A DNA stretch of 64,000 bases from Promethearchaeota archaeon (GTDB taxonomy: Archaea > Asgardarchaeota > Lokiarchaeia > Sigyniarchaeales > SOKP01). Shown here piece after piece: positions 28,921 through 32,844 of the stretch (the first letter of the stretch is position 1; each line of letters opens with the position of its first letter). A program made the position numbers and the translations under genes. The stretch lies in the NCBI GenBank assembly GCA_030599585.1, contig JAUVNS010000014.1, positions 42,028-106,027 of the forward strand. Direction: 5' to 3'. Below the pieces are notes generated by a model. That model worked only from the letters and a program-made list of their open reading frames with translations, was not told the origin of the DNA and did not search any database.

Positions 28921-29210
28921 TTTTTTCACAAATTTAGTTCTAATTTTTTGACATAATTTTTTAATTTCTAGTTTCCACTTCTCTCAAGTGAAAATTTTAC
29001 GAGCTATCTGAGTGTACATAACGATCTTTTGTTTAAAAATTTTATTTCTCAATTTCTAAATTCTTAGAAATTGCTAGTAAATCCGGATTTATTGTGCAAG
29101 AATAAATCTAAAAAAAAGTTAAGGCATTGTTATAACATTAGTGACTATTTAGTTTGATCATTCATGTCTGATTCTCATAAATAAAAAATGATTTTGCAAA
29201 ATAGCACAAA

Positions 29211-30140
29211 TTACATGAAATTAAACAATTTTTTTGTTTTATCTACTGTACTGGAATCAAATTTCCTAAATAAGGCATAAGCAGCAATTGGCACGACACA
29301 TCCACAATTATCACATAATAGTGGTGAATTTCCCATGACACAAAACTTTTGTTTTCCATCAGGAAAGAAACTTTTTACTTGACCAGTTTTAAATACGCAA
29401 TGTGGTACAAATTCTTTTGATAGGTATACTTCTAACATTTTTTTGGAATAAAAAATAAAATTACCATATTCACTCATTACTTTTAAAATGTCTTTTATTG
29501 TCTTTTTTAATATATTGCCTTTTAATAAAAGTGGACTGTCAGGATAGTCGGTATATAATAGAAAGACCAATCCAGAAGCACCATTATCGTGAGTAATCTT
29601 AGCAATGTCTTCAATTTCTTTATAATTTAATGTCATGATGGTTGAAGTAACGACCGGATTGTTCTCCCGAATATTTTGTATGACTCTATCAAAAATGTTT
29701 TCGCCTCTTATCTTATTATGAGTTTCCTTGGTGCCATCTATACTTACCCAGTATTTCGGTTGTTTATATCCATTAAATCGAGGTAATTTTATAACTCCAT
29801 TTGATACAACCTGAACTGAGGGAAAAATTTTAATCGCTTCTTTTATAACATCCATTCTTAAAGTAGGTTCTCCACCGGTTAAAATAGCTGTTTTTGTTCC
29901 TAAATTTCTATGGTATTTAAAAACCTTAATCCATTCTTCGTCCGATAATTCCGTCCTTTTATTTTTTAATTCCGCTGCTGATGAGAAAAAATAACAATGC
30001 TTACATTTTAAGTTACATTGCCAAGTTAAATCATAATTCACATATAACGGTACATTTCTTATTATTGACTGAAAAAACGATGGACCCATTGAAACTAAAC
30101 TTCTTACATTTTTTGCAGTAAATAATGCCATAATCAACAT
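29211..30140 (-). CDS. Radical SAM protein with C-terminal Cys-rich auxiliary domain
   Basis: CNLKCKHC, TGGEP, VSIDG; C-terminal C...C...CDNCGC. Confidence 0.88.
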   Translation of the reverse strand: MLIMALFTAKNVRSLVSMGPSFFQSIIRNVPLYVNYDLTWQCNLKCKHCYFFSSAAELKNKRTELSDEEWIKVFKYHRNLGTKTAILTGGEPTLRMDVIKEAIKIFPSVQVVSNGVIKLPRFNGYKQPKYWVSIDGTKETHNKIRGENIFDRVIQNIRENNPVVTSTIMTLNYKEIEDIAKITHDNGASGLVFLLYTDYPDSPLLLKGNILKKTIKDILKVMSEYGNFIFYSKKMLEVYLSKEFVPHCVFKTGQVKSFFPDGKQKFCVMGNSPLLCDNCGCVVPIAAYALFRKFDSSTVDKTKKLFNFM

Positions 30141-30404
30141 AAAAGATACGCTGCCTTAAAAATAAGTCTCAAATAAATTAAAAAAACTTACGCGTTCTTG
30201 ACGGTATTGAAAAGTAGGAGTAGGAGAAGTTAAGCTTTCTTCCATTATCATTAGAAAAAAATTAATAACTCCTAAAAATCCTTTCGTTTAATTAGCGATG
30301 TTAAATTAGCGCATCAACTTTTTAATAAATAGTGAGAGTTTTTCACCTGTATTGCTCCAAAATAAATAGAAATATCTTACTCTTAAAAAATTAATAAAAA
30401 AAAG

Positions 30405-31142
30405 TTAAGGCATAGTTATTATATTAGTGTCCTCATCGAGATTTATAATTCCTTTAACTGCGAGTTGTTTAATGGTTCGCACTGCCATAATAGGCGGGAC
30501 AGAAAGAAGTTTCTTTAACTCGTTAAGGTTACAGCTTCCCTGAGCCATAATCGTTGCTAATATATCAACTTCTGATATTTCTTCTTCAGAGTTCTCTATT
30601 ATAAACGATGTAAAGTAGTTATTCCTCTTCAAATGATTTAGTTTTAAGTCTAAATCCTTCATCTTTTCTTCAGAATATTCTGTTCTTAAATGCCTTTCAC
30701 GGTTTTCATTATCGATCTTTTTTTGATCTAATAAATTGTTATCATTTTCCTTCGTAACAATTTTGTCGTTAACAATTCTTAGTTTCGATTGAAGATCTTC
30801 AAGTTCTAACTTTGGTCCTTTGAGTTCGTCACTGATTTGTTCAATAGATTTTTGTAGTTCTGAAGTTTTTGCTTGTAGGCCATTTTTAGACGACTTTAAT
30901 ACTTCTATTTTTTTTGCTAGGTCATCCGATTTTGTGTTGAGTTCTGTTATCTCATTATTTTGGACTTCAATAGCCTCTTCTAGCTTTTTAACATCTTCAA
31001 GTTCAAGCTGCATCTTTTTCCAAGTTAAGCTCAAATTCTGAATAATGTTTTCGCTGTTTTTTTGAATTGCTTGTACGTATTCGTCGAAGTACTTCTCGAG
31101 CATTTCAATTGTTCCTAAAATGTCGTTTAAGTTCGAACTCAT
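30405..31142 (-). CDS. Coiled-coil protein with C-terminal winged-helix domain (subunit B of a pair)
   Basis: Long heptad region followed by ILATIMAQGSCNLNELKKLLSVPPIMAVRTIKQLAVKGIINLDEDTNIIT. Confidence 0.7.
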   Translation of the reverse strand: MSSNLNDILGTIEMLEKYFDEYVQAIQKNSENIIQNLSLTWKKMQLELEDVKKLEEAIEVQNNEITELNTKSDDLAKKIEVLKSSKNGLQAKTSELQKSIEQISDELKGPKLELEDLQSKLRIVNDKIVTKENDNNLLDQKKIDNENRERHLRTEYSEEKMKDLDLKLNHLKRNNYFTSFIIENSEEEISEVDILATIMAQGSCNLNELKKLLSVPPIMAVRTIKQLAVKGIINLDEDTNIITMP

Positions 31143-31894
31143 AAGAAATCGACCTCCTCTTTTAAAGTGATTGTACCAGAAGATTGGTCGTATTCAATAG
31201 GAGCATCATCTTCAAGCATTTTAGTAATTATCTTGCGTGCTTGTTCTTCTTTCATATCAATGGCAACTAGAATATTTTTAAGATCTAAAGAACTTCCCAC
31301 TTGTAAAGCTTTAATAAATTGGTAAAGAAGGGAATTTATATATTTTCTCTTTATCAAAGCCTTCATAGCAGCAACTCTAAGTTCATAGGATTCAACGAAT
31401 TTTTCTTTTTTAATGAAAGTTTCGTTAAGTTCTACTTCAAGATTTTTCAATTTTTCCTCAAATTTTTCAACTTCTTTATTTAATGTAAATAAGCGATCTT
31501 CAAGTTCTTTTAAACGAAGTTCCCGATTCTTTAATTCTTCTCTTTTAATGTTGATTGTTTCTTTAACTTCCTTGAATTCATTTCGACTTTCTTGAATTTT
31601 GGTTTCCAATTCTTGGCGATTTCGCACAAGTTCTACATTTTCTTCCTCGAACTTTACGATGTCTCGTTGACTCTGGGATATCTTGTTTTTAAAGGTGTTT
31701 ATTTCTTCATAATTGGATTTTAATGCATTGATTAAGACATTTTTTCCATCTCCATATTTTTCTAGCTCTTCGAGTATCTTTTCAGGTTGTATTCGAAGTT
31801 TTGGGATGTAGTCGCTATTCAAACCACTTAAATTTACAATTATCGAAGCCATTTTCTTTAACGATGTTTTAGCATCTACTAAGGATTCACTCAA
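31139..31894 (-). CDS. Coiled-coil protein with C-terminal winged-helix domain (subunit A of a pair)
   Basis: Long heptad region followed by FIKALQVGSSLDLKNILVAIDMKEEQARKIITKMLEDDAPIEYDQSSGTITL; ATGA overlap with the next gene. Confidence 0.7.
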   Translation of the reverse strand: MSESLVDAKTSLKKMASIIVNLSGLNSDYIPKLRIQPEKILEELEKYGDGKNVLINALKSNYEEINTFKNKISQSQRDIVKFEEENVELVRNRQELETKIQESRNEFKEVKETINIKREELKNRELRLKELEDRLFTLNKEVEKFEEKLKNLEVELNETFIKKEKFVESYELRVAAMKALIKRKYINSLLYQFIKALQVGSSLDLKNILVAIDMKEEQARKIITKMLEDDAPIEYDQSSGTITLKEEVDFL

Positions 31895-32007
31895 GTTAAA
31901 TTCACCATAATATTATATATACGTAATATATTACGCATTATTAAATGTGTATTTTTCAAAATAACGATACATTAGTGATTTTATTAGCCATAAAAAAATA
32001 AGATAGA

Positions 32008-32844
32008 TTACATATCTCTTGATATTTCTTTGAGAAAAAAATCTTTTTTTAAAACCATGTAAATGCCCCTTCGATTCATAACCGTATTTAGATTCTCTAT
32101 TAACTTTTCAGTAAAATACTTAAAATCAAAATAAGTCTCAGGATTAATACGATAATAGCTTTTCAAAAAGAGGTTAATAAGTTCAATTTTAACTAAAGGA
32201 ACGGTTTTTTCAAAAATTCCAGGATTCGTATCAAGCAACGAACAGCATATCCAAGCTATATCATCTATGTGATGTCCCTCATAAGAATCTTCAAAATCTA
32301 ATCCAAATATTTTGTTATCTGAGGGATTATATATAAAATCCCTTAACCGGGTATCACCCTTATTTAACACTTTCAGATGCGAATGATCTTTATCCTCTTT
32401 TATATTATTTGTATGGAGCTTACTTAGCCAATTAGCTAATTGCTCTATACACATCACAAGTTCTTGCTTAGTAATGATATCCAAGCTGTCAAAATCAGCA
32501 ACTTCCAATAATTTATCGTTAATGAAGTCGCATAAATTAATTCCTTCTATTTTTTCAAGTATCAGAAACGGTTTTTTATAAAATAAAATCTTAGGAACTA
32601 GAATTTCTTGTTCATAAAGTTGCTTTAGTGTATCATTCTCATTATCAGCATTGTCATTCGTGAAGACTTTAATTACTACTTCTTTTGGTAGAGACTCTGT
32701 TTTCCTATTGAAAGTTAGATGTACAACTGTATTTTTTTTACTCTGGAATTGAGTTAATATGAAATGGTTAAATTTATCGACTAACTCTGGAAAGTCTTCC
32801 CTGAGATGAATTATTAAATCTTGCCGTATTTTTAAAAGCTCCAT
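32008..32844 (-). CDS. Protein kinase-like (APH/Bud32/RIO-like) phosphotransferase
   Basis: VVIKVF, VPKIL, LEKIEG, KGDTRLRDF catalytic loop, LDFE metal-binding motif. Confidence 0.8.
   Translation of the reverse strand: MELLKIRQDLIIHLREDFPELVDKFNHFILTQFQSKKNTVVHLTFNRKTESLPKEVVIKVFTNDNADNENDTLKQLYEQEILVPKILFYKKPFLILEKIEGINLCDFINDKLLEVADFDSLDIITKQELVMCIEQLANWLSKLHTNNIKEDKDHSHLKVLNKGDTRLRDFIYNPSDNKIFGLDFEDSYEGHHIDDIAWICCSLLDTNPGIFEKTVPLVKIELINLFLKSYYRINPETYFDFKYFTEKLIENLNTVMNRRGIYMVLKKDFFLKEISRDM

Follow-up and report, generated by a model that had tools for sequence, protein, structure and literature searches.

MarR proteins dimerise via short N- and C-terminal helices that flank a winged helix-turn-helix (wHTH) domain, and their basic wing touches DNA. 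In Hop2-Mnd1, an accessory heterodimer of eukaryotic recombination, two related chains run in parallel as a rod that has its two winged helices next to each other at one end and is capped by helices at the opposite end (PMC4402518). Among archaeal ESCRT-locus proteins, those of arCOG09748 (Thermococci) and CdvB, with its C-terminal winged helix, have a C-terminal winged helix placed after a coiled coil, and protein-protein docking has been proposed as their role (PMC10936438). Here we analyse two adjacent genes, A and B, on a stretch of 64,000 nucleotides from a Lokiarchaeial genome (Promethearchaeota archaeon, contig JAUVNS010000014.1), the whole of which is called the window below and supplies all position numbers. 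Both gene products are predicted to consist of a long helical rod that ends in a winged-helix head. We infer that A and B form a parallel, in-register heterodimeric rod that acts as a two-ended adaptor, a reading that we consider reasonably likely. The initial annotation of this DNA had listed two open reading frames of 251 and 245 residues that overlap by ATGA at 31139-31142, and both are present at these positions. The genes and the parts of their products are as follows.

31139-31894, minus strand: gene A, the upstream gene, 251 residues with a TTG start (open reading frame and translation)
31340-31894, minus strand: rod of A, residues 1-185 (helix in the AlphaFold2 model)
31142-31339, minus strand: winged-helix head of A, residues 186-251 (AlphaFold2 model)
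30405-31142, minus strand: gene B, the downstream gene, 245 residues with an ATG start (open reading frame and translation)
30585-31142, minus strand: rod of B, residues 1-186 (helix in the AlphaFold2 model)
30408-30584, minus strand: winged-helix head of B, residues 187-245 (AlphaFold2 model)

Predicted fold and paralogy of A and B

AlphaFold2 models were built from alignments of 19 rows. Protein A was predicted as one helix spanning residues 3-182 and then a winged helix, with a mean predicted local distance difference test score (pLDDT) of 86.6. Protein B was predicted as a helix over residues 2-174 that continues over residues 176-184 and leads into a winged helix (mean pLDDT 85.8). The modelled heads of both proteins have the canonical winged-helix topology, H1-b1-H2-H3-b2-b3. 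The shared architecture of a rod with a C-terminal winged helix, which the initial annotation had read from the letters, was recovered in both models. Foldseek placed both heads closest to the MarR, SarZ and BpsR regulators (E 2e-3 to 1e-2), with further matches to TrmBL2, the cullin WHB domain, Z-alpha, PCI and AspA, so that the proposed heads did match winged helices, DNA-binding and protein-binding ones being tied. Exhaustive structural alignment of B's head to solved winged helices gave Z scores of 8-9.2 and root-mean-square deviations (rmsd) of 1.5-2.1 A over 58-66 residues, and the tied matches comprised ArsR, MarR, the MCM C-terminal winged helix, SelB, Z-alpha, Rpa2, cullin and Hop2 (2mh2). 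Since MarR, ArsR, MCM, Rpa2, Z-alpha, cullin WHB, Hop2 and PCI are tied at Z 8-9, fold searches cannot name the kind of winged helix. As modelled, the heads are generic MarR-like winged helices, a fold that does not by itself tell which kind they are.

The earlier statement that neither protein has an ATPase motif or a transmembrane helix agrees with a motif scan, in which the Walker A motif G....GK[ST] was absent from A and B, and with the hydropathy of both proteins, whose highest value over 19 residues was ~1.05. The heptads had also been called uninterrupted. This holds for residues 46-125, over which the phase is constant, but not for residues 1-45, over which it drifts in both proteins. 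Lokiarchaeial B proteins carry a three-residue insertion near residue 133. The isoelectric point (pI) of each whole protein is near 5.

No similarity between A and B was detected by BLASTP, in line with the little primary similarity noted before. At the level of family profiles, this description no longer holds: hhalign aligned the two families end to end, heads included, over 248 columns (99.6%, E 6.7e-24). This alignment indicates that A and B are ancient paralogs.

No named family fits A or B in Pfam, NCBIfam, PADLOC, PHROGs or sequence searches of the PDB, and we found no description of the A/B family in the literature. The initial annotation had not recognised a described family, and the Pfam, NCBIfam and PDB searches bear this out. 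The PDB searches, run with single sequences and with profiles, returned only coiled-coil noise. Matches to SMC, Rad50, myosin, tropomyosin, JetC, LmuB and tape-measure proteins were rejected as noise of coiled-coil composition, because their scores lay far under the cut-offs and they covered the rod only; the NCBIfam matches to SMC and Rad50, for example, reached 17-28 bits against cut-offs of 450-1087 and covered only the coiled coil. Records at NCBI label these proteins hypothetical. The JGI label 'chromosome segregation ATPase' on some records was rejected, since the Walker A motif is absent. The closest approach to a named family was made by B, in which Pfam MarR (PF01047) matched residues 190-234 at 24.4 bits against a cut-off of 24.6; the same model matched 10 of 19 B members at E <= 0.01. 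Members of A showed neither MarR nor any other winged-helix family among their 25 most-matched Pfam families. The predicted A/B rod has an architecture of a known kind and lies outside any named family.

Conservation along the rod and the probable pairing of A with B

Conservation is distributed unevenly along the two proteins. Within Lokiarchaeia, the mean column entropy of A and B, respectively, was 0.55 and 0.45 over residues 1-45, 0.97 and 0.83 over residues 46-125, 0.63 and 0.60 over residues 126-180, and 0.48 and 0.26 in the head. Conserved ends around a variable middle suggest an adaptor that works at both ends of a spacer whose length is fixed, rather than a protein that binds along its side. 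The necks have motifs of their own, A176 and L180 in A and N..(F/Y)(L/I)(L/I).E in B.

Strong conservation of the head is found in B only. Helix 3 of B, PPIMAVRTIKQLAVKG, is invariant in 117 sequences, and helix 3 of A varies. Across classes, E191 of B is invariant and I194, K210 and P217 are nearly invariant (21 sequences). R222 on helix 3 is nearly invariant in a 19-sequence alignment, position K225 is usually basic, and K210 lies on helix 2. Judged by these sequence patterns, it seems to be the head of B that does the work. The heads of Lokiarchaeia are acidic (pI 4.3-5.7), as are their wing tips; those of some other classes are neutral to basic, with pI values of up to 9.6.

The pairing of the two chains was assessed from their heptads. 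Numbered from residue 1, the heptad phase is equal in A and B in the family alignments. Ionic g-to-e' contacts were scored over residues 46-125 in 28 Lokiarchaeial pairs, down to 42% identity. The mean score was +5.4 for parallel, in-register A:B, compared to -1.5 for A:A and +0.07 for B:B. Scores ranged from -2.8 to +1.4 for the other parallel shifts of A:B and from -1.0 to +1.7 for its antiparallel registers, and only 3 of 1000 heptad shuffles reached the observed A:B score. A register-free version compared seven shifts in each of 17 pairs from ~12 families; the homologous one ranked first in 13 of these pairs, with ~2.4 expected by chance. Several core positions of A are charged or polar (K51, N86, R93, K117 and R124) and lie opposite a nearly pure Leu/Ile d-strip in B, which argues against self-pairing of A. 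In a paralogous pair, A'B', described below, each chain carries an insertion of 32-33 residues that falls within the C-terminal third of the rod, as a parallel dimer requires. The sequence evidence favours the heterodimer that the initial annotation had proposed, in a parallel and in-register form, with A:A mostly disfavoured.

We propose the following arrangement. A and B would be made from one two-gene operon and would pair over their full length into a parallel, in-register coiled coil ~26 nm long. The C-terminal end of this rod would carry the conserved neck and the two winged-helix heads side by side, the N-terminal 45 residues would form a second conserved tip, and the middle 80 residues would serve as a spacer, variable in sequence but fixed in length. 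As a whole, the complex would act as a two-ended adaptor or tether. Its main ligand-binding element would be B's head, with the MarR-like helix 3 and residues R222 and K225, and A's variable head would be its structural partner. As to the ligand, our guess gives nucleic acid, with DNA anchored or bridged, a little less than an even chance; a protein or peptide is also a serious candidate, though we would not bet on it, and something else would come as a mild surprise.

A number of observations weigh against this reading. The expected register was not on top in 4 of the 17 pairs. The statistic from the 28 pairs rests on few independent events, since the genomes are relatives, and paralogy alone would also explain the identical heptad phase. 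B:B matches A:B in some lineages (8 versus 7 in locus L037), and the sequences of such lineages are compatible with B homodimers. A complex prediction for A:B offers weak support. A:B scored 0.58 and the best of three controls 0.00, the controls being unrelated natural proteins that were not picked as coiled coils. The runs agreed in at least 96% of contacts, with a partner pLDDT of at least 84. Of 80 solved complexes, 58 attained the mark used for such predictions, as did 2 of 110 mismatched pairs; the range at or below 0.60 holds only 7 of the 80 solved complexes and both of the mismatches that passed. DNA as the ligand fits poorly with heads that, in the source genome, have a net charge of -3 to -5 and a pI of 4.4-4.6, with a wing-tip consensus, (Y/F)(D/N)E.(T/S)G, that lacks a conserved basic residue, and with the heads of A, which match no winged-helix Pfam family. 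Finally, neither G138, a closed genome of 6.0 Mb within the same order, nor G234, which is 100% complete and belongs to the same genus, has the pair; both gave rod-only matches, so that some lineages can dispense with it.

The gene pair, its distribution and similar genes

The features around the two genes are listed below.

31139-31142, minus strand: ATGA overlap of A's TGA with B's ATG, read from the sequence
31152-31157, minus strand: GGAGGT, Shine-Dalgarno-like motif 9 nucleotides 5' of B's ATG, within the final codons of A (sequence)
31902-31906, minus strand: GGTGA, Shine-Dalgarno-like motif 7 nucleotides 5' of A's TTG (sequence)
31911-31945, minus strand: AT-rich region 5' of A, putative promoter of the operon (sequence only)
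31911-31921, minus strand: TATA-like element TATATATAATA, 5' of A (sequence only)
31937-31945, minus strand: TATA-like element TTTAATAAT, 5' of A (sequence only)
30396-30403, minus strand: T8 run right behind B's stop, probable archaeal terminator of the operon (sequence)

The TTG start of A is backed by the GGTGA motif and by orthologues that share the beginning MSE... With an AT-rich upstream region of their own, a T7 run after the stop of the kinase-like gene upstream of A and the T8 run behind B, the two genes appear to make up an independent operon of two cistrons. The source genome has one copy of the pair.

Neither neighbour was retained as a member of the unit. The RIO/APH-like kinase gene upstream (32008-32844, minus strand) was rejected, as it adjoins the pair only within GTDB family f1 and is not beside it in Promethearchaeum syntrophicum MK-D1 or in other classes. 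An AT-rich spacer of 113 nucleotides and the T7 run lie between it and A, and its sole Pfam match, RIO1, stays below the cut-off of 22 bits with a score of 19.6. The radical-SAM gene downstream (29211-30140) was rejected as a partner because a 35-nucleotide direct repeat stands on both sides of it and it looks inserted. The two copies of this repeat, at 29109-29143 and 30395-30429, are 91% identical, and each comprises the last codons of gene B, the stop and the T8 run. From this layout it looks as if the radical-SAM gene was inserted after B and the 3' end of B was duplicated in the course.

The distribution of the pair was examined in a sample of 400 Asgard genomes. The B search matched 172 of them. 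The A profile matched 277 at E <= 1e-5, where values near 1e-6 to 1e-9 are rod-only noise. Convincing copies of the pair are present in roughly half of the sampled genomes and in at least 12 GTDB families. Wherever matches to both are listed, and in every distant locus opened, A immediately precedes B and is read from the same strand, and across lineages the two genes overlap by 1 or 4 nucleotides or leave a gap of at most 12 nucleotides. This order was seen in GTDB families f1, f3, f9, f11, f13, f15, f16, f18, f19, f26 and f27. Named carriers include P. syntrophicum MK-D1, in which B is DSAG12_03038 and A is the open reading frame immediately upstream, and Baldrarchaeia; a Hodarchaeales member of the family was also found. 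Orthologues of A are 42-96% identical within Lokiarchaeia and 13-19% identical in other classes. Both the conservation of the pair across Asgard classes and the coupling of its genes, as first suggested, are borne out: A is followed by B in every Asgard lineage opened (~12 GTDB families), and the coupling goes beyond chance since the ordered, tight pair recurs in all distant genomes opened, the overlap alone being ordinary. Two full A-then-B pairs per genome are present in GTDB families f9 and f15 (L063:3427-4954, L064:3442-4951, L050 and L051).

The representative search with the B profile was dominated by giant coiled-coil proteins, and of its hits only the ~40 in one stretch, with 237-289 residues, belong to the family. 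Among the 150 best-scoring representatives at 50% identity, full-length members have 237-257 residues, or 283-289 in the paralog, and none of these members carries a fused extra domain. Genes beside the pair in other lineages encode a DNA methylase, a GvpD/KaiC-like ATPase, Hsp20, a PIN protein and transporters. Neighbours of the pair differ between the loci opened and point to no pathway. Copies 79-89% identical to the source pair (VMV43_08690 and VMV43_08695) were found in a metagenome-assembled genome labelled 'Candidatus Nanopelagicaceae bacterium', and they most likely belong to a mis-binned Asgard contig.

Two groups of genes that resemble the pair were observed. The paralogous pair A'B' (284 and 289 residues) occurs in two Lokiarchaeial genera within a conserved cluster (L056-L062, e.g. 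L061:669-9763 and L062:2978-11016). The cluster encodes a SIR2_2-plus-TPR protein, an ORC-CDC6-like ATPase (PF24389), A', B', a coiled-coil protein of 160 residues, an OsmC-like protein of 455 residues and a second coiled-coil protein of 160 residues. Its SIR2 part matches pAgo-associated SIR2 models in PADLOC, and on these matches the A'B' cluster looks like a conflict or defence system. The other group is a third Asgard family of coiled-coil/winged-helix proteins, here called C, a single gene of 170-245 residues with the wing motif L(V/I).YDE.T. Its match to the B profile extends from end to end but is weak (E 1e-8 to 6e-10). Compared to the A/B pair, family C has the same architecture and this same wing motif, but it is a single gene, shorter and more widespread, being present in 319 of the 400 genomes, including G138 and G234, which lack the pair. 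The copy in the source genome lies outside the window (G000:C40:156314-156865). In GTDB family f31, C is found between a Top6A/Spo11-like gene (TP6A_N and Toprim) and a gene for a protein of 333-363 residues without assigned identity; outside f31 the neighbours differ (loci of C: L067:301-3206, L068:277-3177, L076 and L080).

Competing explanations and comparison with known systems

What the rod does at its ends can be explained in two principal ways, each of which we regard as possible but doubtful. The pair may be a DNA-organising factor whose twin heads clamp DNA like a MarR or CRP dimer and whose rod tethers or bridges the chromosome in segregation, recombination or nucleoid organisation. 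The near-threshold Pfam MarR score of B and the 10 of 19 B members that match the model point this way, as do top fold matches to the DNA-binding ArsR and MarR proteins, the basic face formed on B by R222 and K225 of helix 3 with K210 of helix 2, and the basic heads of some classes other than Lokiarchaeia. The geometry of CRP, a parallel coiled coil leading into a C-terminal wHTH, is also consistent with it, and CRP chains are among the fold matches. However, the heads and wing tips of Lokiarchaeia are acidic, helix 3 of A is unconserved, the fold ties with protein-binding winged helices (cullin WHB, MCM, Rpa2 and PCI), and no conserved DNA-metabolism neighbour was seen in the loci opened. A role in recombination, segregation or division, as the initial annotation had inferred, is not borne out by the present evidence, and the same applies to DNA binding as such. 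The acidity of the heads speaks instead for a protein-protein adaptor, in which the heads would dock a peptide or protein like the winged helices of ESCRT-II, CdvB and cullin, and the N-terminal tip would bind a second partner, linking cytoskeletal or membrane-remodelling machinery. This would suit the conserved ends around a variable spacer, and coiled-coil proteins with a C-terminal winged helix are proposed building blocks of archaeal ESCRT (arCOG09748, Thermococci; PMC10936438). It would also suit a family found, as sampled, in Asgard archaea, which have expanded cytoskeletal and trafficking genes. In contrast, no ESCRT, actin or GTPase genes lie beside the pair in the loci opened, ESCRT-II Pfam families do not match, and the sequence of B's head resembles a MarR-type DNA binder.

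Two further explanations change the assembly itself. A and B could be two independent regulators of transcription, each self-dimerising by its coiled coil, whose only link is a shared operon. Helix-dimerised wHTH regulators are common in archaea and the e-g' scores of B:B are neutral to favourable in some lineages, but this is improbable given the negative mean score and charged core residues of A:A, the order and tight coupling kept over ~12 families, and rod lengths that co-vary in the paralogous pair; a rod of 26 nm would also far exceed the needs of dimerisation. We regard as equally hard to credit a filament-forming cytoskeletal element in which A:B dimers assemble like intermediate filaments or crescentin. 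Long coiled coils and conserved ends could serve head-to-tail assembly, and there are weak matches to crescentin and intermediate-filament rod models. These matches are noise of coiled-coil composition, however, the rod is short and of fixed length, and its middle has the least conserved surface, a surface that lateral filament packing usually constrains.

The parallel A:B rod as a two-ended adaptor is our preferred explanation. Among the prokaryotes known, Asgard archaea stand closest to eukaryotes, and their conserved proteins without an assigned role are candidates for poorly understood Asgard cell biology. The A/B pair is widespread, fixed in length, conserved at two ends and present in the cultured MK-D1, and the predicted 1:1 rod is directly testable. 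Should the rod link DNA to another structure, it would bear on the organisation or movement of Asgard chromosomes; should it be only a regulator or scaffold, A and B would still be a new family. In a more far-reaching version, which we think very unlikely, the pair would be an Asgard linker with B's winged helix on the chromosome and the N-terminal tip on a cytoskeletal or membrane partner, a prokaryotic forerunner of the heterodimers with coiled coils and globular heads that serve eukaryotic kinetochores and recombination.

With MarR (PF01047), the pair shares the fold of the head, MarR, SarZ and BpsR being the top Foldseek matches, and the helix 3 pattern of B, ..VRTIK.L..KG.I, resembles the usual recognition helix. 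In contrast to MarR, the wHTH of A and B is terminal, following a single helix of 175-180 residues, the wing has no conserved basic residues, and A's head matches no MarR model. SMC/Rad50-type ATPases have a head with Walker A and B motifs, and A and B lack the Walker A motif. The arCOG09748-type proteins, compared here by description only, contain an additional globular domain in their centre and are encoded in Vps4/ESCRT-III loci, whereas the A/B pair has neither feature (PMC10936438). ESCRT-II proteins (Vps22, Vps25 and Vps36) carry tandem winged helices, unlike A and B, which have one each, and no match of A or B to the EAP30 or Vps25/ESCRT-II Pfam families was found up to E = 1. The Hop2/TBPIP and Mnd1 Pfam families likewise gave no match to A or B up to E = 1, and no RadA gene lies beside the pair in the loci opened. 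The likeness to Hop2-Mnd1 lies in the assembly: two related chains of 200-250 residues form a parallel coiled-coil rod, the arrangement predicted for A and B from sequence. The Hop2 winged helix (2mh2) aligned with B's head over 57 residues at Z 8.2 and an rmsd of 1.5 A, on a par with many other structures. The differences concern the placement of the heads, which are N-terminal in Hop2-Mnd1 and C-terminal in A (186-251) and B (187-245), and the rod, which consists of three kinked zippers in Hop2-Mnd1 and is here predicted as one straight helix. In addition, Lokiarchaeial A and B have acidic heads, and the loci opened showed no link to a recombinase. The comparison with Hop2-Mnd1 drawn in the initial annotation thus stands in part: the domain order is reversed and sequence membership is lacking, but Hop2-Mnd1 is the nearest architectural analogue of the A/B pair.

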